From an uncultured Thermoleophilia bacterium (GTDB taxonomy: Bacteria > Actinomycetota > Thermoleophilia > UBA2241), in the NCBI GenBank assembly GCA_963715985.1, contig CAVQSP010000013.1, forward strand, positions 224,001 through 288,000: 64,000 bases of DNA. Direction: 5' to 3'. This document shows positions 416 to 27,188 of this stretch, one piece after another. Under the pieces are notes generated by a model. The model was not told the DNA's origin, did not search any database, and worked only from the letters and a program-made list of their open reading frames with translations. A program made the position numbers and the translations under genes. The number at the start of each line of letters is the position of its first letter. The stretch's first letter is position 1.

Positions 416-1065
416 CACTTCCACCCCATCATCTTCTGGAACGTGTCCACAGCGGATGTGTGCACCAGCACGTGCACCTGGTCGTCCTTCTCGAACGTGG
501 TTCCGGAGACCGGCAGGAACCCCCGGCCCATGCGCACGATGAGCGCGACGCGGATCTCACCGGGCACGCGGAGGTCGTTGACCGGCTTCCCGATGAAGTG
601 CTCCGGGACCCACGCGGCGAGCATCTGGATCTCGCCGTTGCCGAACGTGTGCTCGCGTTCCAGGTCGGCGCTGGTGATGAGCTCGATGATCTTGCTCGCG
701 CTCCAGGCCGTCGGCGCGAACGTCTGCACGCCGTACCGTCGGTAGATCTCGGCGCGCTGCGGGTCGTAGATGCGGCTGATCACATCCGGCACCCGGTAGA
801 CCTCCTTGGCGACACGCGCGGTCACGGCATTGGTGTTGTCGCCGGAGGTGGCCGCCACGAGCGCGTCCGCCTCGGCGATGCCGGCATCCTCCAGGACGGA
901 GCGCTCGAAGGCGTAGCCCTCAAGGGTGCGTCCACTGAAGCCGTGGGGCAGCAGGCGGAACGCCATGGGGTCCTTGTCGATGACCACGATGTCGTGGCCC
1001 TCGCGGGCGAGCGCGGCCGCGGTGTACGCCCCGACCCTGCCGCACCCGACGATGATGACCTTCAT
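415..1065 (-). CDS. trkA: TrkA/RCK-family K+ uptake regulatory protein
   Basis: MKVIIVGCGRVG, AATSGDNTN, RCK-N and RCK-C domains; ATG overlaps the ATPase stop codon. Confidence 0.92.
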   Translation of the reverse strand: MKVIIVGCGRVGAYTAAALAREGHDIVVIDKDPMAFRLLPHGFSGRTLEGYAFERSVLEDAGIAEADALVAATSGDNTNAVTARVAKEVYRVPDVISRIYDPQRAEIYRRYGVQTFAPTAWSASKIIELITSADLEREHTFGNGEIQMLAAWVPEHFIGKPVNDLRVPGEIRVALIVRMGRGFLPVSGTTFEKDDQVHVLVHTSAVDTFQKMMGWK

Positions 1066-4000
1066 CAGGCTGACTTCCTTTCGGTCGCGGTGAGGGCGGC
1101 AGGTGACGGAACCTTCCGGTGCCGCAGGAACCATTTTCTCGCCTCTTCGGCGAAGAACAAGACGACGGCCGAGATCACCAGGAAGATCCAATCGGCGAGC
1201 GTGAGCGGGCCGGTCTTGAAGATGTCGGCGATGAACGGCACGTAGGAGATGGCGAGGATGATGCCGATGCCGACGAGCTCGCCGATCACGAGGAAGCGGT
1301 TGGTGAAGAGGCCGACCTTGAAGAGCGACTCACGCTCGGTGCGGCAGCCGAAGCCGTTGGCCACCTGGCCGAACACGATGGCCGCCTGGGTCATGGTGAG
1401 GGCCTCCCGATAGACGGCGTAGTGGATGCTGGACGGGTCCATCCAGCTGGCGTCGCCCCAGGTCCAGCCGTGCGAAAGCAGCACGTACAGGAAGCCGGTG
1501 ATGGCGAAGACGGACTGGATCGCCCCGATGAATGCGACGCGGCGCAAGGTGGCTCCGCTGAGGAGGCGCTCGCTCCGCGCCCGTGGCGGCTGGTCCATGA
1601 CCCCCGGCTCCGGATGCTCGGTGCCCAGGGCGAGGCCGGGGAGGACGTCTGAGCCCAGGTCGATGGCCAGCACCTGCAGGGCGCCGAGAGGCACCAGGCC
1701 TACACCCCCGAGGGCGCAGAAGACGAAGGGGAAGAGTTCGGCCATGTTGTGCGAGAAGATGTAGGTGACCATCTTCTTGACGTTGGCGTACACCCCGCGC
1801 CCCTGCTCCACGGCCTTGATGATGCTGGCGAAGCTGTCGTCCAGCAGGATCATGGTGGCGGCCTCGCGCGAGACGTCTGTGCCCGTGAGACCCATGGCGA
1901 CGCCGATGTCGGCCTTCTTGAGGGCAGGGGCGTCGTTCACGCCGTCGCCGGTGACGGCGACGATCTGCCCCATATCCTTGAGAGCGGTCACGACCTGCAT
2001 CTTGTGCTCCGGCGCGACCCTCGCGAAGATCACGTCCTGCGGCTTCTGCAGCTCGGCCTTGAGGTCATTCTCGGTCATTGCTTCGAGGTCGACGCCGGTG
2101 ACGACGCGCACGTTCCTGTCCCCGCGGACGATGCCGATGCGGCGGGCGATGGCCTCGGCAGTCAACCCGTAGTCGCCCGTCACCATGATGATGCGGATGC
2201 CGGCCGTGAGGGCGTGCTCCACGGCCTCGCTCACCTCCGGCCGCGGCGGGTCGATCATGCCGACGAGACCGAGGAAGGTGAGGTCGGTCTCGACCGCGTC
2301 GGGAGCGTAGTCGGTGAGCTCGTTCGGCAGGTCGCGCTCGCACACCGCCAGCACGCGCAACGCCTGCCGCGACATCTCGTCGTTCTGCGCCACGATGCGC
2401 TCGCGCAGCTCGTCGGTCATGGCGACGACGTCGCCGTCCAGGCGCATGCGCGTGCAGCGCGACAGGGTCTCAGAGGGCGCGCCTTTGACGTAGGCCTTCT
2501 GGCCGTCGCCCTCCACGTGCACCACGGACATGCGCTTGCGCACCGACTCGAACGGCAGCTCGTAGATCTTGGGCCGTTCGATGAGCTCCGTCTGCAGGTC
2601 GAAGTCGGCCTTCTGTGCGGCGACGAGCAGGCAGCCCTCGGTGGGGTCACCGATCACGCGCCAGCCCTGGTCGTCCGACGGCGCCAGCACCTTGGCGTCG
2701 TTACAGAACGTCATGGCGCGCATCATCGGTTCGAGCTGCCGCCTGGCCTCCGTGCGGTCGAGCTCGGCGCCGTCCACGACGAACCCGCCGACAGGCTCGT
2801 AGCCGGCGCCGGTCACCTCGACGTCGCGCCCACCGACGGAGAGCGCCTTCACGGTCATCTCGGCCTTGGTGAGCGTGCCCGTCTTGTCGGTACAGATGAC
2901 GTTGGTGCACCCCAGCGTCTCCACGCTGGCGAGCTTCTTGATGAGCGCCTGGACCTTGGCCATGCGCTGCACGCCGATGGAGAGGGCCACGGACAGCGTC
3001 GCCGGCAGGCCCTCCGGCACCAGCGCCACCATCACACCGAGGGCGAACAGCAGCGCCGGGACGGCGCCGAAGTGGAAGACCAGGAGGGCCAGGACGAACA
3101 GCAGCACGCCGCAGAAGACGGCGATCATGGACACCGTCCGCGCCATGCGGTCGATCTCCTTGAGCAGCGGAGACCTCTCGTCGGAGACGCCGGCTGTGAG
3201 CGTGAAGATGCGCCCGAACTCGGTCTTGAGGCCGGTGTTGAACACGACCGCCCGCCCGGTGCCCGAGGCCACGCTCGTGCCCATGAAGACGAGGTTGGGC
3301 ATGTTGATGACGGCCAGCTCCTCTTCGAGGATGGGGTCGTCCGTCTTGCGCACCGCGTCCGACTCCCCCGTGAGGGCGATGTTGTTGGTCGAGAGCTCGT
3401 ACTGGCGCACGACGCGGGCGTCGGCGCTGATGCTGTCGCCCTCCTCCAGGACCAGCAGGTCGCCGGGGACCAGATCCTTGGCGGCGACCATGGTCACCTC
3501 GCCGTCACGCACCACTTTGGCGTTCGCAGGCACCAGCTTCTGCAACGCTTCGGTCGCCTTCTCGGCCCGGTACTCCTGGAAGAAGCCGATGATGCCGTTG
3601 AGGAGCACGACGCCGATGATGGCGACGGTGACGTTGATGTTGTCCTGGCGAGCCGAGCCGGTGGACAGCATGGCGGCGACGAAGACGAGGACCGCCGCCA
3701 CCTCGAGCATGATCGCGAAGAGCGACGTGAACTGGTCGAGGAACTTGTAGATGATCGGGCGGCTGACCTTGGCGGGCAGCACGTTGTGCCCGTACTGCTG
3801 CAGCCGCTTGAAGGCCTCGTCCTCAGTCAATCCCGCGGACGACGAGCCGAGGCGCTCGTAGACCTGGTCGTCGGGGAGCTGCCAGAGCTCGGCCGCCGGC
3901 GCGGGACCGGCCGGCCGGTCAGGCGCCGAGCCGGCCGGCCCGCTGCCGTTGCCGCCCGTCCGGTGGACGAGCGCCGGCGAAGCCGGGTCATCCTCGTCGG

Positions 4001-4067
4001 GCAGCATTGCCTGGACCCGTGAAGGGCGGATCTCCGCCCGTGTCGAGATGTGGTCATGCGGCGTCAA
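1065..4067 (-). CDS. Cation-translocating P-type ATPase, type II, Na+/K+-ATPase-like (P2C-like), about 1000 aa
   Basis: TGES, VALVPEGL, DKTGT, KGAP, TGD, GDGVNDAP, TM6 LAIDLGSDVLP; TTG start at 4067 inferred from a GGAGG RBS. Confidence 0.9.
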   Translation of the reverse strand: MTPHDHISTRAEIRPSRVQAMLPDEDDPASPALVHRTGGNGSGPAGSAPDRPAGPAPAAELWQLPDDQVYERLGSSSAGLTEDEAFKRLQQYGHNVLPAKVSRPIIYKFLDQFTSLFAIMLEVAAVLVFVAAMLSTGSARQDNINVTVAIIGVVLLNGIIGFFQEYRAEKATEALQKLVPANAKVVRDGEVTMVAAKDLVPGDLLVLEEGDSISADARVVRQYELSTNNIALTGESDAVRKTDDPILEEELAVINMPNLVFMGTSVASGTGRAVVFNTGLKTEFGRIFTLTAGVSDERSPLLKEIDRMARTVSMIAVFCGVLLFVLALLVFHFGAVPALLFALGVMVALVPEGLPATLSVALSIGVQRMAKVQALIKKLASVETLGCTNVICTDKTGTLTKAEMTVKALSVGGRDVEVTGAGYEPVGGFVVDGAELDRTEARRQLEPMMRAMTFCNDAKVLAPSDDQGWRVIGDPTEGCLLVAAQKADFDLQTELIERPKIYELPFESVRKRMSVVHVEGDGQKAYVKGAPSETLSRCTRMRLDGDVVAMTDELRERIVAQNDEMSRQALRVLAVCERDLPNELTDYAPDAVETDLTFLGLVGMIDPPRPEVSEAVEHALTAGIRIIMVTGDYGLTAEAIARRIGIVRGDRNVRVVTGVDLEAMTENDLKAELQKPQDVIFARVAPEHKMQVVTALKDMGQIVAVTGDGVNDAPALKKADIGVAMGLTGTDVSREAATMILLDDSFASIIKAVEQGRGVYANVKKMVTYIFSHNMAELFPFVFCALGGVGLVPLGALQVLAIDLGSDVLPGLALGTEHPEPGVMDQPPRARSERLLSGATLRRVAFIGAIQSVFAITGFLYVLLSHGWTWGDASWMDPSSIHYAVYREALTMTQAAIVFGQVANGFGCRTERESLFKVGLFTNRFLVIGELVGIGIILAISYVPFIADIFKTGPLTLADWIFLVISAVVLFFAEEARKWFLRHRKVPSPAALTATERKSA

Positions 4068-4127
4068 GCGTCGCCTCCATCTGCTGCCGCCTGATAGCGC
4101 AGGCGGAAACGGCACATACGACATCAG

Positions 4128-4192
4128 AGGGTAGCGAGCAGCCCGTGAACCCGGCGTGAAGCAGGGGCCCCGGACCCTCAAGAAGCCGTTAA
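4128..4192 (-). promoter_or_regulatory. Putative KdpE-box promoter P4, upstream of ATPase-trkA-trkA
   Basis: TTAACG-N5-TTGAGG-N15-TTCACG-N5-TTCACG-N10-TACCCT; same spacing as three other promoters in the locus. Confidence 0.75.
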
Positions 4193-5339
4193 GGCTCCGG
4201 CGCGCCTTGCTCGGATCTGCCACGATGAGGATGTCGACGTGCTCCATGTCCCGCATGAGCCGCATCACGAGCGGCGAGCCGCGCAGCACTTCGTTGGCGC
4301 GGCTCCGCTTTGACTGGCCGAGCACGATGAAGGTGGCGCGCTTCTGGCGTGCGAACTTCAGGATCTCCTCGGCGATCGAATCGCCGCTGAGCTCCACGGC
4401 ATGCCCGCCGAGCTCGTGGGTCAGATCGAACAGGCGCTTGAGCTCCTTCGTGTGGCCGGGCGACTGCGGCCCCTTGTGCACGTACACGACCCAGAAGGGG
4501 CCCCGGAAGCGGTGCGCCAGACGGTGACCACGGCGCACCAGCTTCGCCGCGACCTGGCCCGGCCGCAGGCAGACCACCACCCGCTCCTCCGTCGTCAACG
4601 GGCGCTCGGTCTCGCGGCCGGAGATGTAGCGCTCCAGGCTCTCGTCGACCTCCTCCGCGGCCTTGCGCAGCGCCAGCTCGCGGAGGGCGACCAGGTTCTC
4701 CTGCTTGAAGAAGTTGGCCAAGGCACCGGGCACCGTGCCGAGGTCGTAGATCACACCGCGCCGGAGCCTGTTGAGGAGGGCATTGGTGGTGAGGTCCACG
4801 AGGACGATCTCGTCGGCGCGGTCGAGCACGAAGTCCGGCACGGTCTCCTGGACACGCACACCCGTGATCTGGAGCACGGTGTCGCTGAGGCTCTCCACGT
4901 GCTGGATGTTGACGGTGGTCAGTACGTCGATGTCGGCGGCGAGGATCTCCTCCACGCTCTGCCAGCGCTTCTTGTGGGCGGTCCCGGGGATGTTGGTGTG
5001 CGCGAGCTCGTCAACGAGAGCCAGCGACGGCGCACGAGCGATGACCGCCGCGGTATCGAGCTCATCGAACGCTTTGCCGCGATACTCGAGGCGCTTGAGC
5101 GGCACCTGCTCCAGGCCCTCCGCCGCCTCTGCGGTCTCCTTGCGCCCGTGCGTCTCCACGAAACCGATGACCACGTCCTCGCCACGCGAGCATCGCCGCT
5201 GGGCTTCGGCCAGCATCATGTAGGTCTTGCCGACGCCCGGGGCGTAGCCAAGGAAGACCTTCAGGTGACCGCGCTTGCGGAGCGTGCGCAGCGACAGCAC
5301 CTCCGCCACATCGTTCGCGGCTGCCCGATCGTTCGCCAT
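4189..5339 (-). CDS. kdpD: KdpD N-terminal module (KdpD domain + USP); as sequenced it reads through into the ATPase
   Basis: GHLKVFLGYAPGVGKTY Walker A, ETHGR, LVDELAHTN, LRELALR, USP domain; out-of-frame TAA at 4189-4191. Confidence 0.88.
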
Positions 5340-5929
5340 CAGCGTCGGGCGACGATACCGCCGCCTGCCTGGTCCAGAGCCAGGTTCAGCGCCAGGACGT
5401 TGACGCGGGGCTCACCCAGGAATCCGAACTGCCGGCCGGTCGTGTGCGCCTCGATCAGCGCGAGCACCCGCGACACCTGCAGGTCTCGCGCTGCCGCGAC
5501 ACGTGGAGCCTGGGCGCGAGCGTTGGCGATGGTGATGTCCGGGTCGAGTCCGCTCGCCGACGTCGTCACCATGTCGATGGGCACCTGCCCGATCTTGAGT
5601 CCGGGGTTCGCCGTGGTCGCGGCAATCACATCTGCTCGTACCCTGTCACGCAAGACCCTGCTCGTCGGGCCGAGGTTGGAGGACGACGAGCTCATCGCGT
5701 CGTAGCCCGCGCCTGCGGCCGAGGGGCGCGGGTGGAAGTAGCCGGCGGCGCTGAACTCCTGGCCGATGAGCGACGAACCGATCGCCCTGCCGTTCACCTT
5801 CACGATGCTCCCGTTCGCCTTGCCCGGGAACAGGATCTGGGCCGCGCCCGTCATCGCGAAGGGATAGATGAGGCCGAGGACGACCGCCGTGACGATCAGC
5901 ATACGGAGCGCGATGAAGGTGGTGCGCAC
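5339..5929 (-). CDS. kdpC: K+-transporting ATPase subunit C
   Basis: GSSLIGQ, YFHPRPSA, SNLGP, TTSASGLDPDI, EPRVNVLALN. Confidence 0.96.
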   Translation of the reverse strand: MRTTFIALRMLIVTAVVLGLIYPFAMTGAAQILFPGKANGSIVKVNGRAIGSSLIGQEFSAAGYFHPRPSAAGAGYDAMSSSSSNLGPTSRVLRDRVRADVIAATTANPGLKIGQVPIDMVTTSASGLDPDITIANARAQAPRVAAARDLQVSRVLALIEAHTTGRQFGFLGEPRVNVLALNLALDQAGGGIVARR

Positions 5930-5939
5930 GACTCCCCTC

Positions 5940-8036
5940 CTATCCCGCGAGACCGAGGGCGACGAGGACGAGGTCTATGGCCTTGATGCCCACGAACGGT
6001 GCGATCACGCCTCCGAGGCCGTACACGAGCAGGTTGTAGCGAAGCAGTGCGGCGGCGCCGATGGGCCTGAACTTGACTCCGCGCAGGGCGAGCGGGATCA
6101 GGAGCACGATGATGATGGCGTTGAAGATCACCGCCGAGAGCACAGCACTGTGCGCCGAGTGCAGGCGCATCAGGTTGAGGGTCTCGAGCTGGGGGAACGC
6201 GACCATGAACATCGCCGGGATGATGGCGAAGTACTTGGCTACGTCGTTGGCGATGCTGAACGTGGTCAGAGCGCCGCGCGTTATGAGCAGCTGCTTGCCG
6301 ATCTCCACGATCTCGATGAGCTTGGTGGGATTGGAGTCGAGATCGACCATGTTGCCGGCCTCTTTGGCGGCCACGGTGCCGGAGTTCATGGCGACGCCCA
6401 CATCGGCCTGAGCCAGGGCCGGGGCGTCGTTGGTGCCGTCCCCCGTCATCGCCACGAGCTTGCCGTTCTGTTGCTCCCGCTTGATGAGCTCCATCTTGGT
6501 CTCCGGCGTCGCCTCGGCGAGGAAGTCGTCTACGCCCGCCTCCTCTGCGATGACCGCGGCCGTGAGGGGGTTGTCCCCGGTGATCATGACGGTGCGGATG
6601 CCCATGGCGCGGAGCTGGTCGAACCGCTCGCGGATGCCGCCCTTGACGATGTCCTTCAGCTGGACGACGCCGAGCGCTTTGTCGTCGCGCGCCACGGCCA
6701 GCGGGGTGCCGCCTTCGTTCGAGACGCCCCTCATGGCCGCCTCGAGCTCGGGGGGCACCTCGCCGCCACGACTGCGGACCCAGCTGACGACCGCGTCACC
6801 GGCGCCCTTGCGGATCGCGTGGCCGTCGATGTCGATCCCGCTCATGCGCGTCTGCGCCGTGAACTCGACGAAGACGGCGTGTTCGGGATCGATGTGGCGA
6901 GCCCTGATCCCATACTGCTTGGCGAGCACCACCACCGAACGGCCCTCGGGCGTCTCGTCGGCGAGTGACGCCAGTTGGGCCGCGTCCGCCAGCTCCTGCT
7001 CCGTGACGCCGGGCACGGGGAGAAAGGCCACCGCCTGGCGATTGCCGAGCGTGATCGTGCCCGTCTTGTCGAGCAGGAGCACATCCACGTCGCCGGCCGC
7101 CTCCACCGCGCGGCCGGACATCGCCAGCACGTTGTGCCGCACGAGGCGGTCCATGCCGGCGATGCCGATGGCGGACAGCAGGCCGCCGATGGTGGTCGGG
7201 ATGAGGCACACGAGGAGGGCGATGAGCACGGTGGGCGAGACCGGCGCGCCGCTGTACACGGCGTAGGGCTGCAGCGTGACGACGACGATGATGAAGATGA
7301 TCGTGAGCCCGGCGAGCAGGATGTTGAGGGCGATCTCGTTGGGCGTCTTCTGGCGCTCCGCGCCTTCGACGAGCGCGATCATGCGGTCGAGGAACGTCTC
7401 GCCCGGGTCCGAGGTGATCTCCACCACGATGCGGTCAGACAGCACGCGGGTGCCGCCGGTGACGGCGCTGCGGTCGCCGCCGCTCTCGCGGATGACCGGC
7501 GCCGATTCGCCCGTGATCGCCGACTCGTCCACCGAGGCGATGCCTTCGATGACCTCGCCGTCGCCGGGGATGATCTCGCCCGCCGTGACGACGACGACGT
7601 CGCCACGACGCAGCTGTGCGCTCGGCACCTGGGTGATCGTGCCGTCCACCCGAAGGTTGGCCAGCGTCTCGGTGCGCGTGCGGCGCAACGCCTCGGCCTG
7701 CGCCTTGCCGCGCCCTTCGGCCATGGCGGTGGCGAAGTTGGCGAACAGCACGGTGAACCAGAGCCAGGCGGAGACGGAGCCCACGAAGAAGAGGGGTCCG
7801 CCGCGGAACAGCTCGTCGAGAAACGCGATGGTGGTGATGACGCTCCCCACCTCCACCACGAACATGACGGGGTTGCGAGCCACGTCGCGGGGGTCGAGCT
7901 TGACGAACGAGCGGCCGATGGCGGGCCAGATCAGCTCCCGCATGGACGCCCGCTGCGGCTTGGGCGTCGAGCCACTCGGCACGATGTCCTGCTGCGTCCC
8001 CGCCTGCTCCGTCGGCTGCTCCATCCTGGTCGCCAT
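5940..8036 (-). CDS. kdpB: K+-transporting ATPase subunit B
   Basis: [45 protein letters not shown]. Confidence 0.98.
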
Positions 8037-8046
8037 GCCCGCGCCT

Positions 8047-9771
8047 CTAGAAGACCTTGCCCGCGTGCATCAGGAGCTGCTCCAGGATCGGCCCCAGCGC
8101 GAGTGCGGGAAGGAAGGTGAGGGCGCCGACGATCAGGATCACACCCACGAGCAGCACGACGAAGATGCCCCCGGTCGTGGGGAACGTGCCGCTGGACTCG
8201 GGCACGTGCTTCTTGGCCGCCAGTGAGCTCGCCAGTGCCAGACACGGGATGATGAAGAAGAAGCGCCCCCAGAGCATGGCGAGGCCACCGAGCGTGGACC
8301 AGAACTTGCCGCTCACGGTCAGACCGGCGAACGCACTGCCGTTGTTGCCCGTCTGTGAGAAGGCCGCATACAGGATCTCCGACAGCCCGTGCGGCCCCTG
8401 GTTGAGGATCGCGTCCCTGCCTGCGGGGACCACGCTCGCCAGCGCAGAGAGGCCCAGCGCCGCGACGCTGAAGTAGAGCACGGCGAGCACGGCCAGCTTC
8501 ATCTCCCGGGCCTCGATCTTCTTGCCGAGGTACTCCGGCGTTCGGCCCACCATGAGGCCCGCGATGAAGACCGCGAGGATCGCCATGACCAGGAGGCCCA
8601 TCAGACCGACACCGACTCCCCCGAAGACCACCTCGCCGAGCGCGATGTTGAGCATCGCCATGCCTCCGGCGAGCGGGGTGAGACTGTCGTGCGAGGTGTT
8701 CACGGCGCCGGTGGACGTGTCCGTGGTGATGTTCGCCCAGAGGGCGGAGTTGGCGATGCCGAAACGCACCTCCTTGCCCTCCTGGTTGCCGCCGGACTGG
8801 GTCGACGTCAACGCCTGGTTCGCGCCCTGTGCGGTGAGGATGGGATTGCCCGCCTGCTCGCTCCAGTACATGACCGCGACGCCCATGACGAGGAGCGCGC
8901 CGGCGGCGGCGAACAGCGCCCATCCCTGCCGCTGGTTGCCGGCGAACCGTCCGAACGTGTACGTGAGCGCGGCCGGGATGGCGAGGATCGCCAGCATCTC
9001 GATGAGGTTCGTGAGCGGCGTCGGATTCTCGTACGGGTGCGCCGAGTTGGCGTTGTAGGAACCGCCGCCGTTCGTCCCCAGCTCCTTGATGATCTCCTGC
9101 GAGGCGAACGGGCCCTGCGCGATCGTCTGCGTCACGCCCTGGACGGTGAGGGCTTTGGTGGGCGCGTTCAGGTTCTGCACGACGCCCTGCGAGACCAGCA
9201 CCAGCCCGCCGACGATGGAGATGGGCAGCAGGATCCAGACGATGCTGCGCGTGAGGTCGACCCAGAAGTTGCCCAGCTCCTTCGTGGTGTGCCGCGTCAG
9301 CCCGCGGATGAAGGCGACGGCGACGGCCATCCCGATCGCGGCCGAGACGAAGTTCTCGCGGGCGAGGCCGAGCATCTGCGTCAGGTAGCTGACCGACGTC
9401 TCCGGGACGTAGACCTGCCAGTTCGTATTGGTCGAGAAACTCACGGCCGTGTTGAACGCGACCCAGGGATCCATGCCGGGGACGTGCGCCGGGTTCAGGG
9501 GCAGGTGGCCCTGGAGGCGGAGCAGGACGTAGAGGAAGAGGAGGATGACGAGGTTGAACACGAGAACGGCGACGACGTACCCCCCAACGCCCATCTCGCG
9601 CTTCTCGTCCACACCGGCAAGTCGGTAGATGAGGCGCTCGACCGGGCGGGCGACGGGGTCGAGGAACGTCCGCTCGCCGCGGTAGACGTGCGCCATGTAG
9701 ACGCCGAGTGGCTTGGTGACCAGCACCACCAGCACGAGCAGGATGACGATCTGGAGGATCTCCCAGGCCAT
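8047..9771 (-). CDS. kdpA: K+-transporting ATPase subunit A
   Basis: Filter motifs TNTNWQ, GTNGGG, TSTGAV, GNNGSAF; also EGKEVRFG and [12 protein letters not shown]. Confidence 0.98.
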
Positions 9772-9777
9772 GGCGTC

Positions 9778-9867
9778 TCAGAACTTCTCCGGCCGCAACA
9801 GGGCGTAGAAGACATAGGCCGCGAGGCACGCCGCGACGATCAGGAGGACGATGTTGATGGCGCTCAT
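9778..9867 (-). CDS. kdpF: KdpF small subunit, 29 aa
   Basis: MSAINIVLLIVAACLAAYVFYALLRPEKF has the KdpF C-terminal Y..YALL.PE.F pattern; directly upstream of kdpA. Confidence 0.92.
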   Translation of the reverse strand: MSAINIVLLIVAACLAAYVFYALLRPEKF

Positions 9868-9875
9868 CGGGACCC

Positions 9876-9959
9876 TCAGAGCCGCGGCGCCACACGGGCG
9901 TACGCCGCCGCGGCCAGGAAGAAGACGAGCACGAGCGCGATGAAGGCGAGGTCTCCCAT
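9876..9959 (-). CDS. 27-aa hydrophobic peptide upstream of kdpF
   Basis: MGDLAFIALVLVFFLAAAAYARVAPRL; fits the gap before kdpF; GC3-rich codons. Confidence 0.7.
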   Translation of the reverse strand: MGDLAFIALVLVFFLAAAAYARVAPRL

Positions 9960-9983
9960 AGCATGCTGCGGTCCGGAGGCGGG

Positions 9984-10227
9984 TCAGACGTGCTTCTCGC
10001 GCAGCGCGCTTGCCTTCTCGCGCGCGACGCGAGCTGTCTGCGGACTGCGCCGCTGTGGTCGCGGTGAGATGACGAGGACCGATACCGGCGTCTCGATCGC
10101 GCCGCTGCCGGCGCAGGTGGACCTGCTCACGCACGCCGGCCTGGATCGCCCACGCCAGAATGCCGACGGCCAGCATCACGGCAGCGATCATGACGATCTC
10201 GATGAGGATCTCTCCAACCAGCATCAT
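9984..10227 (-). CDS. Small single-TM protein, paralog C (about 80 aa if one extra base is removed; as sequenced it reads into kdpF)
   Basis: MMLVGEILIEIVMIAAVMLAVGILAWAIQAGVREQ...; AGGAGG RBS; follows promoter P3. Confidence 0.7.
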
Positions 10228-10275
10228 GTCGGCCTCCTGGGTGGTCCACTGGCGTGGCGTGACTGCTACACAGGG

Positions 10276-10340
10276 ACCGTACCCGGGGCTGCCTTAAGGA
10301 GCCGTGAACGAGCCTCCGACCCTCATTAAGACTCCGTGTA
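10276..10340 (-). promoter_or_regulatory. Putative KdpE-box promoter P3, upstream of paralog C and kdpFABC
   Basis: TACACG-N5-TTAATG-N15-TTCACG-N5-TTAAGG-N10-TACGGT. Confidence 0.78.
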
Positions 10341-10422
10341 GGCTTGCGGCGGTCAAGCCAGCCGGGCTGGAGAGCTAAGCCGCGGCGTCAGCTTCGACAC
10401 GCGGCGCAGGGTGGTGGAGCGT

Positions 10423-10641
10423 CTAGGGACGCGACAGCCAGTGGGGAAGAAGCAGCGCAACGCGCCGGCCGAGAGGCGACGGCGTCGAGGCTACCGCGCG
10501 TGGGGACTTCCGCCTTCTGCCGGGCCGCGTCCTGGGCGACGTCTCGACAAGAGTCACGCGCAACAGGTACACAATGAAGACGACCGCGGCGACGACAGCG
10601 GCGATCACCACGATTCCGCTCACGATCGAGTACAGTTCCAT
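10423..10641 (-). CDS. Small single-TM protein, paralog B, 72 aa
   Basis: MELYSIVSGIVVIAAVVAAVVFIVYLLRVTLVE plus an Arg-rich tail; AGGGGG RBS; follows promoter P2. Confidence 0.72.
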   Translation of the reverse strand: MELYSIVSGIVVIAAVVAAVVFIVYLLRVTLVETSPRTRPGRRRKSPRAVASTPSPLGRRVALLLPHWLSRP

Positions 10642-10687
10642 GACAACGACCCCCTGGGGAGCGCCTGAACAGCATGCCTATGCTCCG

Positions 10688-10752
10688 ACGGTAGTCGTCG
10701 TGCCGTGAACGTGCCGTGTAGGCGGGGGGGTGCGGCATCAAGAACCTGTGAA
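10688..10752 (-). promoter_or_regulatory. Putative KdpE-box promoter P2
   Basis: TTCACA-N5-TTGATG-N15-TACACG-N5-TTCACG-N10-TACCGT. Confidence 0.75.
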
Positions 10753-10811
10753 GGCGGAAGCCGGTGGAGAGCGGCCGATCCCGGCTCGCGTGGCGCCGGC
10801 GCTCCGGCGCC

Positions 10812-11516
10812 TCAGCCGTCGGACGGTGGCGTGAGGCGGAACCCCACCCCGGGCTCCGTGACGATGTGTCTGGGGCCGCCGGGCGTCTCGATCTTCTTGC
10901 GCAGGTGGCTCACGTGCACGCGCAGCGTCTGCGCGTCCTCCACCCATTCCGGTCCCCAGACCTGCTCCAGGATCATCTTCTGGGTGACCACCAGCCCCGC
11001 GTTGCGGGCCAGGAAGGCGAGGATGTCGAACTCGGTGGGGGTGAGGGAGACGTCGCGCCCGCCCAGTGTGACGTGGCGGCGCGCTATGTCCACGGTCAGG
11101 TCGCCGACGGTGATCTGCGGCGGCGGCGAGGTCAGCGCAGCGGCCCGCCGCAGCAACGCCCGGATGCGCGCCAGCAGCTCGCCCGCCGAGAACGGTTTTG
11201 TGAGGTAGTCGTCGGCGCCCTCGTCGAGCGCCCGGATCTTGTCCGCCTCCGCGGAGTGGACCGACAGGATGAGGATGGGGGCGCTGCACCAGGTGCGCAG
11301 CTCCCGGCAGACCTCGATGCCGCTCATGTCGGGCAACGCCAGGTCGAGGACGACGAGGTCAGGCGGCGTGTCGATGGCGTGCAACAGCGCCTCCTGCCCG
11401 GTCGCGACCAGATCCAGTGCGTAGCCGCGCGTCCTCAGGATCGACGTGAGCGCACGCCGGATCTGCTCCTCGTCGTCCACCACGAGGACGTGCACCGGGC
11501 GTTCCGGGATGCTCAC
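10812..11516 (-). CDS. kdpE: OmpR-family response regulator KdpE
   Basis: VLVVDDE, LDLALPD, GADDYLTKPF, LTPTEF, LRVHVSHLRKKIE, TEPGVGFR; GTG start overlaps the kinase stop. Confidence 0.9.
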   Translation of the reverse strand: MSIPERPVHVLVVDDEEQIRRALTSILRTRGYALDLVATGQEALLHAIDTPPDLVVLDLALPDMSGIEVCRELRTWCSAPILILSVHSAEADKIRALDEGADDYLTKPFSAGELLARIRALLRRAAALTSPPPQITVGDLTVDIARRHVTLGGRDVSLTPTEFDILAFLARNAGLVVTQKMILEQVWGPEWVEDAQTLRVHVSHLRKKIETPGGPRHIVTEPGVGFRLTPPSDG

Positions 11517-13024
11517 GTGGGCTCCTCTCGCGTCCCGTCTGTCGGCAGCGTGATCACGAATCGAGCCCCGTGCGGGACCACATCCTCCACGTGCACCGTG
11601 CCGCCGTGCGCGCGGACGATCTCCCGCGTGATGGCGAGCCCGAGGCCGGTGCCTGAGGGAGCTGCGGCACCGGCTCCGCGGCCGCGGTAGAACTTCTCGA
11701 ACACGGCCTCGTATTCGGCGGCGGCGACGCCCGGTCCTTCGTCCTCTACCCACACTCTCAGGGCGCGATGCGACTCTCGCGCGCCCACCGTGACCGTGGT
11801 GCCGGCTCCGCCGTACAGCATCGCGTTCTCGAGCAGGTTCTGCACGACACGCACCCACTGGCTGTAGTCGACGAGCACCGGATCCAGGTCGTCGGGGATG
11901 TCCAGCTTGACCTTGTCGCGCTGATGGGCGGGGAGGGTGTCGACGCCGGCTGCGACGATGTCACTCAGGTCGTACATCTCGCGCCGTGGCTCCCACGTGT
12001 GCGCCTCGAGCCTCGACAGGTCGAGCAGGGCGCTGATGCTGCTGTTCAGCCGGGTGATATCGCCCACGATCGAGCGCAGCTCGTCGCGCACGCTCTCCTC
12101 GTCCCACTGTACGTCGCTCTCGAGCAGGTTGCTCACTGTGGCCGTGAGCGCCGCCAGCGGCGTCTTGAGCTCGTGCGACACGGAAGAGAGCAGGCTCGAC
12201 TTGAGGCGGTCCGCTTCGCGGCCCGCCTCGGCCCGCGTCGCCTTGGCCTGCAGTTCCTGGCGCTCCAGGAACGCGGAGACGAGGTTGGCCAGGGAGGTCG
12301 CCAGACGCAGGTCGGCCGCCGTGAAGGCGCGGCCACCGGCGGCCGCGCTCACGCTGAGGACGCCGAAGGTCGTCGAGGAGCTCTGGAGCGGGAGGGCGAG
12401 GTCGGGCTCGGCCATGCCTTTGTACGACCCCTGAGGCCCGCCGCCGGCGTACACGCGCTCGGCCTGCTCGACCGTCTTGGCCGGCGGAACGACGTGCGCC
12501 GGCCAAGAGCAGTACGCCCTGAGTTCCCCCTGGTCCGGGAGGAACAGCGTGGCCGACGCCACGCCGAGCTGCTCGACCACCTCGCGGGCCACGGCCTGCG
12601 CCATGGCGGCGGTGGACGTCTGGGACACAAGCTCTGCGCTCACGCGGTTGAGCGTCATCGCTTCGTCCTCCCGCGAGATAGCTCTCGCCTCCCGTTCGCG
12701 CATCCGGCCCGCCATGATGCCGACGATGACGCCGACGATGAGAAAGGCGACGAGCGACAACCAGTCCTTGGGATCCTGGATGGAGAGGGTGTGATACGGC
12801 GGCAGGAAGAAGAAGTTCCAGGAGAAGAAGGCGAGCACGGCCGCCACGACGGCCGGTCCGGCGCCTGCGGCGCTTGCCACCAGCAGGATCACGAGCAGGT
12901 ACAGGAGCGCCCACTGCTCTTTGGCGAACATCTCTCGCCCGGGGAGGAAGATGAGAGTGGAGACAACGACAGCGAGGACCCCGACGATGTAACCGCGACT
13001 GGCGAGGCGCCTGACCCGGTTCAT
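11513..13024 (-). CDS. kdpD: Sensor histidine kinase, KdpD C-terminal part (DUF4118 TM region, GAF, HisKA, HATPase)
   Basis: WNFFFLPPYHTL, SVSHELKTPL, NLLENA, EDEGPG, FEKFYR, GTGLGL; lacks the KdpD N-terminal domain. Confidence 0.88.
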   Translation of the reverse strand: MNRVRRLASRGYIVGVLAVVVSTLIFLPGREMFAKEQWALLYLLVILLVASAAGAGPAVVAAVLAFFSWNFFFLPPYHTLSIQDPKDWLSLVAFLIVGVIVGIMAGRMREREARAISREDEAMTLNRVSAELVSQTSTAAMAQAVAREVVEQLGVASATLFLPDQGELRAYCSWPAHVVPPAKTVEQAERVYAGGGPQGSYKGMAEPDLALPLQSSSTTFGVLSVSAAAGGRAFTAADLRLATSLANLVSAFLERQELQAKATRAEAGREADRLKSSLLSSVSHELKTPLAALTATVSNLLESDVQWDEESVRDELRSIVGDITRLNSSISALLDLSRLEAHTWEPRREMYDLSDIVAAGVDTLPAHQRDKVKLDIPDDLDPVLVDYSQWVRVVQNLLENAMLYGGAGTTVTVGARESHRALRVWVEDEGPGVAAAEYEAVFEKFYRGRGAGAAAPSGTGLGLAITREIVRAHGGTVHVEDVVPHGARFVITLPTDGTREEPT

Positions 13025-13204
13025 CGTCGACTCCTCCTGGCGGGGTTTCCGTCGCCGCGGGAGGCATCAGTCCTCACGGGCGCGGTAGTCTGTTCGCAAC
13101 AGACAGTAGCACTGCCCGGTGGGAATCGTCGTCATCATGAGGGCGAGCGCGCAGCCGAACCGGGCGCGACTCGTGGTACGCCATCGGTCCCGTCGGTCGT
13201 GGTG

Positions 13205-13456
13205 TCAGGGGTGGTGCTGGAGCGAGTGAGAGGGAGCCGCGGCCGGCGCCGGAGTGCGCATGATCATCGCGTGCGCCGGTTCGGGGACAGAGGCGCGCCG
13301 CGCGGCACGCTCACGACGATAGTCGTCCAGGAACGCCAGTTCTTCGCGGTGCTCCCACCAGACCAGGGCTATGAAGTAGGCGATCAAGGCCACCCCGCCC
13401 ACACCGGCGATGATGGCCGCGAGCTCGATCACGACCTCTGCGATTCCTGCGACCAT
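13205..13456 (-). CDS. Small single-TM protein, paralog A, 83 aa
   Basis: MVAGIAEVVIELAAIIAGVGGVALIAYFIALVWWEH...RRERAARR; GGAG RBS; follows promoter P1. Confidence 0.72.
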   Translation of the reverse strand: MVAGIAEVVIELAAIIAGVGGVALIAYFIALVWWEHREELAFLDDYRRERAARRASVPEPAHAMIMRTPAPAAAPSHSLQHHP

Positions 13457-13508
13457 CGTCTGCTCCCGAGTCCTCCGGCATGGCCCGCGGCACGCGGAGC
13501 CTGACCAA

Positions 13509-13573
13509 GACGTACCCGGGCGGTCATAAAGGACGTGTGAACTGTGCCTACTGCCGTCTAAAGATTCCATAAA
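13509..13573 (-). promoter_or_regulatory. Putative KdpE-box promoter P1
   Basis: TTTATG-N5-TTTAGA-N15-TTCACA-N5-TTTATG-N10-TACGTC. Confidence 0.75.
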
Positions 13574-13678
13574 GAGGTCGCTGTCCGACGCGCGGCAGGC
13601 GAAGCCGGGCCCGTGACGCGCAGGCACGGTCTGGATGAGAAGGACACAGGGCAGATGGCCGTCGGAAGGAGGAGAAGG

Positions 13679-25015: not shown

Positions 25016-26526
25016 TCAGAGCAGTCGTGAGAACAGCCGGTAGATGGAGTTCCGGAACTTCGCTGCGCGCTGAAGCGATTGCACCCACTCGAGCGTGACC
25101 TCGCAGCACTCAGCGATGTCCTTCTCGTACTGCGTGGCGTAGTTCCGTCGCGATGGTATCGTCGTAGAAGATGGACACCACCTCGTCGTGCAGGATGAAG
25201 CTGCGGATGTCCCAGTTGCAGGTGCCGATGAGCGAGAACTGGTCGTCGACGGTCACGGTCTTCGCGTGCAGAAAGCCTGCCTTGTACTGGTAGACCTTCA
25301 CGCCGGCGCGCAGCAGCTGCGGGTAGTAGGCGTGCGCGGCGTAGAACGGGATCTTCTTGTCCGGCACGCCGGTCATCATGAAGCGCACGTCCACTCCCGC
25401 CGCGGCGCCTGCGCACATCGCCGTGATCAGCGGTTCGTCCGGCACGAAGTACGGCGACTGGATCCAGATGCGCCGGCGCGCGTTGGTGAGGGCGATGATG
25501 AACACGTCGCGGATCGTCTTGAAGTCGGTGGCCACGCTCGAGTGCAGCACCTGTACCGGCGTGCCTTCGCCGGGCGCGTGCGTCCGTCGGCTCGGCCGCG
25601 TACCCCGTGACCAGGTCTTCCTTGCGCCCGTTGAGCAGCCACGTGGCCGCGAACAGCATGAGGTAGGGCGTCACGACGGGGCCGGTCAGGCGGAACGACG
25701 TGTCGCGCCAGACGGCGAAGCGCGGCCCGCCGTCGATGTACTCCTGGCCCATGTTCATGCCGCCGCTGTACACGCTCTTGCCGTCGATGATCACCATCTT
25801 CATGTGGTTGCGGTAGTTGATGTGCGAGAGGTGCTTGAAGCACGGGACGACCACGGCGCCGGCCGGCGGCGAGCTGCTTGAGCTCGTCCTTCTTGTAGGT
25901 GATGCAGCTCAGCCAGTCGTAGATGATGTGGACCTGCACGCCGGCCTTGAGGCGGTCGAGCAGCACCTCTGTGACCTTGGCCGTGAGCTCGTCCTGCTCC
26001 CAGATGAGGTACATGAGGTGGATGTACCTGCTCGCGCCGTCGCCATCTCCTCGAGCAGGCGCCGGGAACTTCTGCGAGCCGGCCGTGTAGATCTCGACGG
26101 TGTCGGCCGGCAGCGGCACGATGCCGTCCTCGTGACGGCCTGTGGACTCGACCCGCGCCGCCCGGTGTGCCCTCCATGCTCGCCGATCGCGGCCTCAGAG
26201 AAGCTCCGCGTTGGCGGCCAGCGTCGGCGCCAGCGAGCGTTCGGCGAGCCGGGTCCATCTGCGCCGAGCACTCTCGGTGCGCCTCCTGGACGCGCGCCGG
26301 TAGTTCCGCCCGATGAAGAAGTAGGCGACGATGCCGATGACCGGCACCAGCATGATCACGAACAGCCAGGCGAGCACGGTGCTCGGGTCGCGGTCGTCGG
26401 TGGCGAGCGCGATCACCACGCCCGCCAGCGCGAGCAGGATGATGATCTCGAAGACCCAGCCGGCGACGCTCTGCGCGGTGACGGCGGTGAGCAGCGTGCG
26501 CGGCCGGGCAGCGCCAGGGCGGTCAT
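25016..26526 (-). CDS. cls: Cardiolipin synthase with several frameshifts
   Basis: N-terminal TM segment (RDPSTVLAWL), two HKD motifs (RNHMKMVIIDG, LHAKTVTVDD), QSPYFVP. Confidence 0.85.
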
Positions 26527-27188
26527 GCCGCCCTCCGCGCCGCACGCCGCGCGTGCTCGGCCCGCCAGATCGGGTCGATCAGCACGAGCAGCGAGATGGC
26601 CAGGTACACGACGACGGCGGCGACCGGCAGGATGAGCCCGAGCAGCGTCGCCGCGGCCTGGATGATCACGGCCACGCGCCGCTGCCGGTCGAAAGCCTTG
26701 AGCTCGGCGTCGGCCGCGTCGTCGGCCGCGACGCCCGGGGTGCGGCTCGCATAGCCGAACATCACGTTCACCATCAGCGAGGCCAGCGTGAGGTTGATGC
26801 CGAAGATCACGACCGCGATGTGGGCGGCGCTGTCGTCGAGGTGATTGGCCAGCAGGCTCGTCGTGAAGGGGAGGAAGGAGACGAAGAGCAGGAGGACCAG
26901 GTTGAGGCCCATCATCACCTGGTCCGCCGCCTTGGTGAACCGCGTCAGGTTGCTGTGCGCCATCCAGACGCCGCCGATGAAGGCGAAGCTGACGAAGTAG
27001 CCCGAGGTAGCTCGGCCACTCAGCGCCCAGCTCGTGCAGCAGGGCCTCGCGGGTCGAGTGGGACGTGCAGCTCGAGGACCAGCAGCGTGATCGCGATGGC
27101 GAACACGCCGTCCGAGAACGCCTCGAGACGTGTGGTCGGCAGGAGGCGGCTCTCGATGCCTCCGCCTTGTGTTCCCGTCGTCAGGCAT
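26523..27188 (-). CDS. TMEM175-family K+ channel-like protein, frameshifted
   Basis: RLEAFSDGVFAIAITLLVL in one frame; YFVSFAFIGGVWMAH and FLPFTT in another. Confidence 0.85.
   Translation of the reverse strand: MPDDGNTRRRHREPPPADHTSRGVLGRRVRHRDHAAGPRAARPTRPARPCCTSWALSGRATSGYFVSFAFIGGVWMAHSNLTRFTKAADQVMMGLNLVLLLFVSFLPFTTSLLANHLDDSAAHIAVVIFGINLTLASLMVNVMFGYASRTPGVAADDAADAELKAFDRQRRVAVIIQAAATLLGLILPVAAVVVYLAISLLVLIDPIWRAEHARRAARRAA

Follow-up and report, generated by a model that had tools for sequence, protein, structure and literature searches.

The window analysed here is a stretch of 64,000 nucleotides from an uncultured Thermoleophilia bacterium (source assembly 4.35 Mb, 70% G+C). On its minus strand, three short open reading frames (ORFs), denoted A, B and C, accompany the genes of a split-type KdpD/KdpE pair in a kdp region. 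From upstream to downstream, the gene order is tRNA-Glu, ORF A, kdpD', kdpE, ORF B, ORF C, ORF X, kdpF, kdpA, kdpB and kdpC, continuing past kdpC with a KdpD N-terminal/USP protein, a P2-type ATPase and two trkA genes. The histidine kinase encoded by kdpD' (11513-13024) comprises DUF4118 membrane, GAF, HisKA and HATPase domains (Pfam) and is without the N-terminal KdpD/USP part, aligning to positions 396-883 of the 895 in the NCBIfam KdpD model. The response regulator gene kdpE (10812-11516) was identified with Pfam; its best NCBIfam match is KdpE PRK10529, under the cut-off of that model.

ORF A (13456-13205; 83 residues) and ORF B (10641-10423; 72 residues) lie where a preliminary description of this DNA had placed them, and the three transmembrane helices quoted there were recovered in the translations of A, B and C, together with the shared pattern Y/W-x-I/L-x5-E. 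ORF C (10227-9984) had been read to a stop at 9984, but as assembled this stop lies in another frame, and the reading frame continues for 149 codons in an in-frame run into kdpF. Related-strain contigs from two of four sequencing runs (X1 and X2) contain two extra bases at 10084-10085, which yield an ORF C of 81 residues ending at 9984; the runs X20 and X24 have no contig row at these positions. The corrected frame is supported by P0087, a database protein of 81 residues with 94% identity to ORF C over 47 residues, and the length in relatives is likewise about 81 residues. Because the contigs derive from other strains (47 differences in 1063 bases), an assembly error and a strain lesion at 10085 are indistinguishable. 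A ribosome-binding site had been assigned to each ORF; GGGAG precedes A and GGAGG precedes C, but B has only a weak run of G. Each ORF has its own orthologues: P0195 (56% identity) and P0157 (54%) for A, with others in genomes G011, G036, G034, G001 and G029; a single one, P0112 (53% over 72 residues), for B; and the 94% identical database protein for C. Contigs of one RNA run span 13249-13481 (A), 10384-10644 (B) and 9955-10054 (C), but these are contigs only, from one study, and do not prove transcription. In RNA run X24, parts of kdpD' are uncovered; contigs cannot rank genes, and this was not used as evidence.

Each of the three ORFs has its own KdpE-like four-box promoter upstream, as the preliminary description had claimed: at 13508-13575 for A, 10687-10754 for B (more divergent than the others) and 10275-10342 for C, all on the minus strand. 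The boxes begin with TT and are spaced by 11, 21 and 11 base pairs (bp), and the last box ends about 10 bp upstream of a putative -10 element (13514-13509 in the ORF A promoter), similar to the distance in PhoB-type promoters. The TT-starting 11-bp repeats resemble those of E. coli kdpFABC, where KdpE binds TTTATA and TTTACA, 11 bp apart (PMC3264566). A matrix built only from the C promoters of 13 relatives (13 of 15 aligned without gaps) gave the top three ranks among 8,699,036 genome positions to the A, C and B sites, in this order (scores 52.0, 46.3 and 14.4). A broader matrix of 88 relatives' sites, chosen with a matrix that had seen two of the window sites, gave four clear sites in the genome at 41.6-55.6, with the next background at 12.9. 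These are the sites of A (55.6), C, B (44.5) and the P2 ATPase gene (4127-4194, minus strand; 41.6). Since no other site precedes kdpF, the ORF C promoter probably doubles as the kdpFABC promoter in the window. The four-box motif was found in 34 of the 35 genomes of the genus with kdpD' and in none of the 19 without it, while a reversed control was found in 0 of 54. We infer that phosphorylated KdpE binds the boxes and places A, B and C under K+ control; probably, the KdpD/KdpE pair switches them on. At the full-length kdpD loci of the genus (L033-L035, L038, L046, L047, L052, L054 and L055) there is a different upstream motif, resembling the four-box box on the opposite strand.

The sequences place A, B and C in one single-helix family without a name, as paralogues that have diverged from one another; B is the most divergent member and C represents the commonest subtype. 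Direct pairwise similarity is marginal and by itself unconvincing, with 117 (A-C), 444 (A-B) and 40 (B-C) of 2000 helix shuffles matching the score. The paralogy proposed earlier is instead carried by a profile from 79 C-type homologues, on which A and B score 18.0 and 18.9 bits, compared with 9.7 bits for the best of 445 control single-helix ORFs in the genome; 0 of 300 helix shuffles reached the score of A, and 4 of 300 that of B. In a six-frame scan of the bacterium's own genome, C, B and A alone scored, with a profile that had included these three. A search of 1.84 billion representatives returned 141 matches, two of which (P0176 and P0203) were dropped as long proteins and false matches, leaving about 139 family representatives at 50% identity. 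In a tree of 51 columns, made by a quick method (the careful search is unfinished) and with 7 of 97 branches at 95 or above, A, B and C each cluster with outside sequences and not with each other.

The family proteins range from 42 to 134 residues in length (median 76 for 122 members) and have a single hydrophobic segment, modelled as one helix of residues 2-47 with a mean predicted local distance difference test (pLDDT) score of 94.3. The approximately 139 representatives retain the frame, the length and the pattern E6/E10/A16/E34 in ORF C numbering (84-93% by residue class). In 100 sequences, positions 6, 10 and 34 are acidic in 85, 86 and 91%, respectively, and class conservation is 88% for A16, 73% for Y/W26 and 78% for R/K39. 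Conservation has a helical period with its peak at 100°, which 50 of 5000 shuffles reach, and the conserved face is made up of E6, I9, E10, A16, A20, L24 and E34. The charge distribution suggests an N-out/C-in orientation, which would leave the acidic N-terminus on the outer side of the membrane and the Arg-rich segment on the inner side. The ratio of nonsynonymous to synonymous substitution rates (dN/dS) was 0.15-0.35 in the five closest pairs over 41 codons, 0.18 for a 49-residue subtype linked to the P2 ATPase, and 0.28 in the pooled test of pump-less loci (95% interval 0.16-0.45; 123 codons, three pairs), which indicates purifying selection. Tails past about residue 45 are near neutral in many pairs, and distant pairs are saturated. 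The kdpD' genes at pump-less loci are also under purifying selection, with a ratio of nonsynonymous to synonymous differences per site (pN/pS) of 0.13-0.19 (G036, G034 and G001). The KdpE-like control, the conserved helix face and the protein-level constraint together make a specific membrane partner likely.

The homology search found the ORFs conserved and matched them to no named family. There was no informative match in Pfam and NCBIfam for 51 members (no weak family was common to more than 7 of them), in PHROGs for six proteins, among PDB sequences (best E value 0.079) or in the ESM Atlas (best 0.81 and 0.85). MgrB was absent among the Pfam and NCBIfam matches shown for the 51 members, with none for A, B and C. 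The KdpF profile (PF09604/TIGR02115) matched neither A nor B nor the core of C and was not among the 25 families shown for the 51 members; the 149-residue read-through of ORF C matches it solely via its last 24 residues, which are kdpF itself. Kinship with ORF X or KdpF was rejected on account of background scores on the family profile (6.0 bits for ORF X, equalled by 22 of 445 controls). An origin from the fourth helix and Arg cluster of KdpD (positions 478-511) was also rejected: the E value of 0.0036 was obtained for ORF C only, one of 51 members, and on the family profile the helix of the window KdpD' obtains 4.7 bits, a score that 51 of the 445 controls attain as well.

Among the genomes searched, the family is confined to one taxonomic family of uncultured Thermoleophilia. 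In 400 genomes of the class, 42 of the 79 from this taxonomic family matched; five weak matches in other families were rejected as false, having no kdp genes nearby and none being member-like, as were weak matches within the genus in G021 and G025. The family is present in 31 of 54 genomes of the genus, and none of these 31 carriers lacks kdpD'; four more have a divergent kdpD' and no family, and no convincing member was found in the remaining 19. In 30 of the 31 carriers, the distance from a member to kdpD' or kdpE is about 3 kb or less; in the last one, the contig ends 303 bases past kdpE. The preliminary description had named KdpFABC, a P2C-like pump and the split KdpD as possible targets; the association with kdpD'/kdpE held in every carrier, but kdpFABC adjoins the family gene in only 17 of the 31 (not adjacent in 14), and a P2 orthologue was detected in 17 (two of them as broken or cut copies) and not in the other 14. 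Five carriers without the orthologue that were checked closely had just 34-42% identical paralogues. Neither kdpA nor a P2 orthologue was found in five carriers (G023, G075, G036, G065 and G067; 63-92% complete), all of which have APC+USP transporters and four of which have TrkH. The gene of the 49-residue subtype sits directly upstream of the P2 ATPase in all three genomes where it was found (G015, G077 and G035), and ORF C is present at the head of the kdpFABC unit in 17 of 17 split-kdpD kdpFABC loci, one of which has a second promoter before X.

In other genera, the family gene is no more than 1.6 kb from kdpE in 15 of 16 loci, the operator is upstream in all 16 (one weak), and kdpFABC has a separate promoter of its own downstream of the family gene in seven. 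No member was found beside the full-length kdpD loci. A kinase-based census placed a member within the fetched 5 kb in 36 of 62 loci at ≥50% identity; of the others, four end too soon, five have kdpE moved further off and 17 are without the family, while distant kinases had a member nearby in 0 of 18 cases. At 12 of the 17 loci lacking the family, another, unrelated small one-helix ORF lies behind the same operator. The kdpD'/kdpE pair often persists without the N-terminal KdpD chain or kdpA. Because the genomes are incomplete, related assemblies, these counts are not independent. Further unrelated one-helix ORF types occur at kdpD'/kdpE loci (L195, L151, L155 and L202; L109, L111, L040 and L050; L056 and L121; L114), mostly behind the same operator and with background scores on the family profile.

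We tentatively favour the reading, which we hold at somewhat less than an even chance, that A, B and C are KdpE-induced modulators of a KdpD-type kinase, similar in kind to MgrB and SafA, the target being suggested only by gene linkage. Kinase modulation is put first because KdpD'/KdpE is the sole constant companion of the family and because PhoQ provides a precedent of induced small proteins, being modulated by MgrB, SafA, UgtL and UgtS (PMC12648545). In mycobacteria, a two-hybrid test showed binding of KdpF to KdpD (PMC10730256). At low K+, phosphorylated KdpE would bind the boxes and induce A, B and C; the proteins would insert N-out/C-in, and their conserved face would pack on the four-helix membrane domain of the KdpD-type kinase, shifting the balance between its kinase and phosphatase activities. 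In its simplest form, this would be negative feedback on KdpD'. Paralogues with promoters of unequal strength could also give graded or opposing inputs, as do the several small proteins on PhoQ.

A number of observations weigh against kinase modulation. Genes targeted by KdpE would all be expected to show linkage to kdpE, a feature that does not identify the binding partner. At pump-less loci, no genes other than the small ones were found with the operator. A two-component system with no output except its own brake would not easily be maintained, and this speaks for an effector role, provided that no targets were missed; the strict operator pattern misses ORF B's own promoter and could likewise have missed others. 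KdpD' can dispense with the family, as in four of the 35 kdpD' genomes of the genus and the 17 census loci described above. The loop residues R30 and K35, possible partners of E6/E10, are kept also in kinases without a neighbouring member, and the topology suggested by charge is what we take to be the opposite of that of MgrB and SafA. Moreover, of the six genomes that entered the pooled dN/dS test, five have a full-length kdpD and kdpFABC elsewhere, and the supporting counts suffer from the non-independence noted above. A complex prediction with two copies each of KdpD' 1-345 and ORF C 1-46, each with an alignment, scored 0.00 against a mark of 0.32, but the controls were not folded either, and it was used neither way.

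The effector role could be exerted on transporters, a close rival reading that we consider possible but less likely than not. KdpD'/KdpE would then have A, B and C as its output, and these helices, comparable to MgtS, KdpF or FXYD proteins, would bind to K+ transporters, stabilise them or adjust their activity. Their targets would be KdpFABC or the P2 ATPase in bacteria that have these pumps at hand, and otherwise APC+USP (KimA-like) or Trk systems in trans, with possible differences between subtypes. The constant position of ORF C at the head of kdpFABC units in split-kdpD loci and that of the selected 49-residue subtype before the P2 ATPase agree with such a role, as does the occurrence of the same operator before APC-type transporter genes at other loci, and the selection on kdpD' at pump-less loci implies that the system needs an output. 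However, neither KdpFABC nor the P2 orthologue tracks the family, kdpFABC is separately promoted in the seven loci of other genera, and with X and kdpF the locus already encodes two peptides of KdpF size. The co-occurrence with APC+USP and Trk rests on six genomes, all of them carriers, and therefore does not discriminate. Kinase and transporter roles may both hold, for different paralogues. In a broader version, which we think unlikely, the split-type KdpD'/KdpE runs a small-protein control layer, its paralogues divided between setting kinase gain and serving as FXYD-like subunits, either of a bacterial K+ pump resembling the Na,K-ATPase or of the housekeeping importers of K+; the most constant output of KdpD'/KdpE would then be a set of one-helix proteins.

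The helix face with A16 and A20 is also compatible with self-association, and the operator is found upstream of genes without a K+ link (DUF2795, CBS/DUF294 and DUF2254 proteins). The family might have an independent or non-K+ role, for example by forming homo-oligomers that change the permeability of the membrane or its potential, or by providing a link to some kinase or protease outside the system, with a KdpD'/KdpE signal that is perhaps not K+. We regard this as improbable: in this bacterial family most operator sites lie upstream of kdpFABC, of the P2 ATPase-trkA unit or of the ORFs themselves, and no toxin or channel family was matched in Pfam, NCBIfam, PHROGs or PDB. The near-neutral tails, the frameshift of ORF C in the window, and the weak ribosome-binding site and single orthologue of ORF B could even suggest that the ORFs are leftovers or untranslated leaders and that the promoter or an RNA is what matters. 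This is very improbable in view of the frame, length and residue pattern held by the representatives and the low dN/dS in the closest pairs.

Like MgrB, SafA, UgtL and UgtS, which act on PhoQ, A, B and C are small membrane proteins, several to a kinase, and MgrB is induced by the system that it inhibits (PMC12648545), just as A, B and C carry a KdpE-like operator. A, B and C match none of those four proteins in sequence and differ from them in forming a single paralogous family whose genes lie next to that of the kinase; furthermore, the PhoQ modulators act largely via a periplasmic domain, which KdpD' does not have. Of the features of MgrB-like feedback regulators, the family shows a single-pass small protein and a cognate-type operator, and kinase binding is putative. 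KdpF and the KdpZ/KdpY proteins of Clostridium acetobutylicum are also small one-helix proteins under KdpE control that head kdp operons. (The clostridial operon is named kdpZYABCXDE; PMC5401905.) In contrast to these, the family scores as unrelated to kdpF and X, both of which the window has in addition, and while KdpF is about 29 residues long, directly before kdpA and obligate with kdpABC, the family proteins are mostly far longer and often have no adjacent kdpFABC. One-helix modulators of P-type ATPases include FXYD proteins and sarcolipin, and the window offers a similar setting, in that a P2 ATPase with Na,K-like motifs is under the same operator as the small genes; no sequence match was found to these proteins or to MgtS and MgtR, the bacterial representatives (PMC12648545), and 14 of the 31 carriers were without a detected P2 orthologue. 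Split KdpD systems, in which a KdpD/Usp serine kinase and a TM/GAF/DHpCA histidine kinase are separate chains, have been described (PMC11018627). The window reproduces this two-chain arrangement exactly, its N-terminal chain being encoded downstream of kdpC; in contrast, no small accessory protein is named in the part of that report considered here.

The preliminary description had proposed an undescribed system, a fair term for the family itself. Tuning of kinases and pumps by small membrane proteins is of a known kind, but the literature searched contained no description of this family, of the expansion of its paralogues or of its link with split KdpD. That literature yielded no dedicated small-protein regulator of KdpD beyond the two-hybrid contact of mycobacterial KdpF. 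The family may tune the KdpD/KdpE sensor, and with its own KdpE-like promoters it provides a defined handle on intramembrane tuning of KdpD signalling; binding of the P2-linked subtype to the pump, if it occurs, would be the bacterial parallel to regulation by FXYD proteins. The range is narrow, the family being known from one family of uncultured bacteria and from sequence alone.

Downstream of ORF C, a conserved hydrophobic ORF of 27 residues, ORF X (9876-9959), precedes kdpF (9778-9867; PF09604 above cut-off, TIGR02115) and lies outside the small-protein family. ORF X is conserved in split and full-length kdp loci, a similar ORF is present in the Armatimonadota locus L211, and it has no Pfam or NCBIfam match; we presume that it might be a KdpZ-type subunit. 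The pump genes kdpA (8047-9771), kdpB (5940-8036) and kdpC (5339-5929) were identified with Pfam and are followed by the stand-alone KdpD N-terminal/USP protein (4200-5339; end approximate, its stop codon lost in the window) and the P2-type ATPase (1065-3899; start approximate), all on the minus strand, and then by the trkA genes. An in-frame KdpD-N/USP-P2 ATPase fusion of 1424 residues (1065-5339, minus strand) was rejected as real, as 13 of 13 relatives have a stop between the two genes; related contigs in two runs have one extra base at 4202-4203, and the fusion is probably an assembly error or a strain lesion. The ATPase contains the motifs VPEGL, FSHNMAE and IDLGSD, which we take to resemble helix motifs of the Na,K- and H,K-ATPases, and it scores 622 and 580 bits with the NCBIfam IIA2 and IIC models, both below cut-off. 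Fifteen other genomes of the genus have it at 79-87% identity, and it is a candidate for a second K+ pump under KdpE control. Elsewhere in the window, away from any operator site, an ORF at 26523-27188 (minus strand) has a partial match to the TMEM175 potassium channel (E value 7.7e-10).

At other loci, the operator is found upstream of a DUF2795 gene of 60 residues (L115:11167-11349 and L116:11481-11663) and of cNMP/CBS/DUF294-type genes (L121, L149 and L202). An APC-type transporter gene lies behind the operator beside kdpD'/kdpE in L117 (5725-7461; APC+USP, KimA-like), L204 and L211. In L215-L219, L221 and L236, KdpD'-like kinases of about 350 residues, apparently without GAF, occur with kdpE and a convergent hydrophobic ORF of 27-28 residues behind the operator. 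Finally, five loci from other genera (L146, L147, L149, L150 and L155) have a second kdpA-C-B operon between kdpD' and kdpE.

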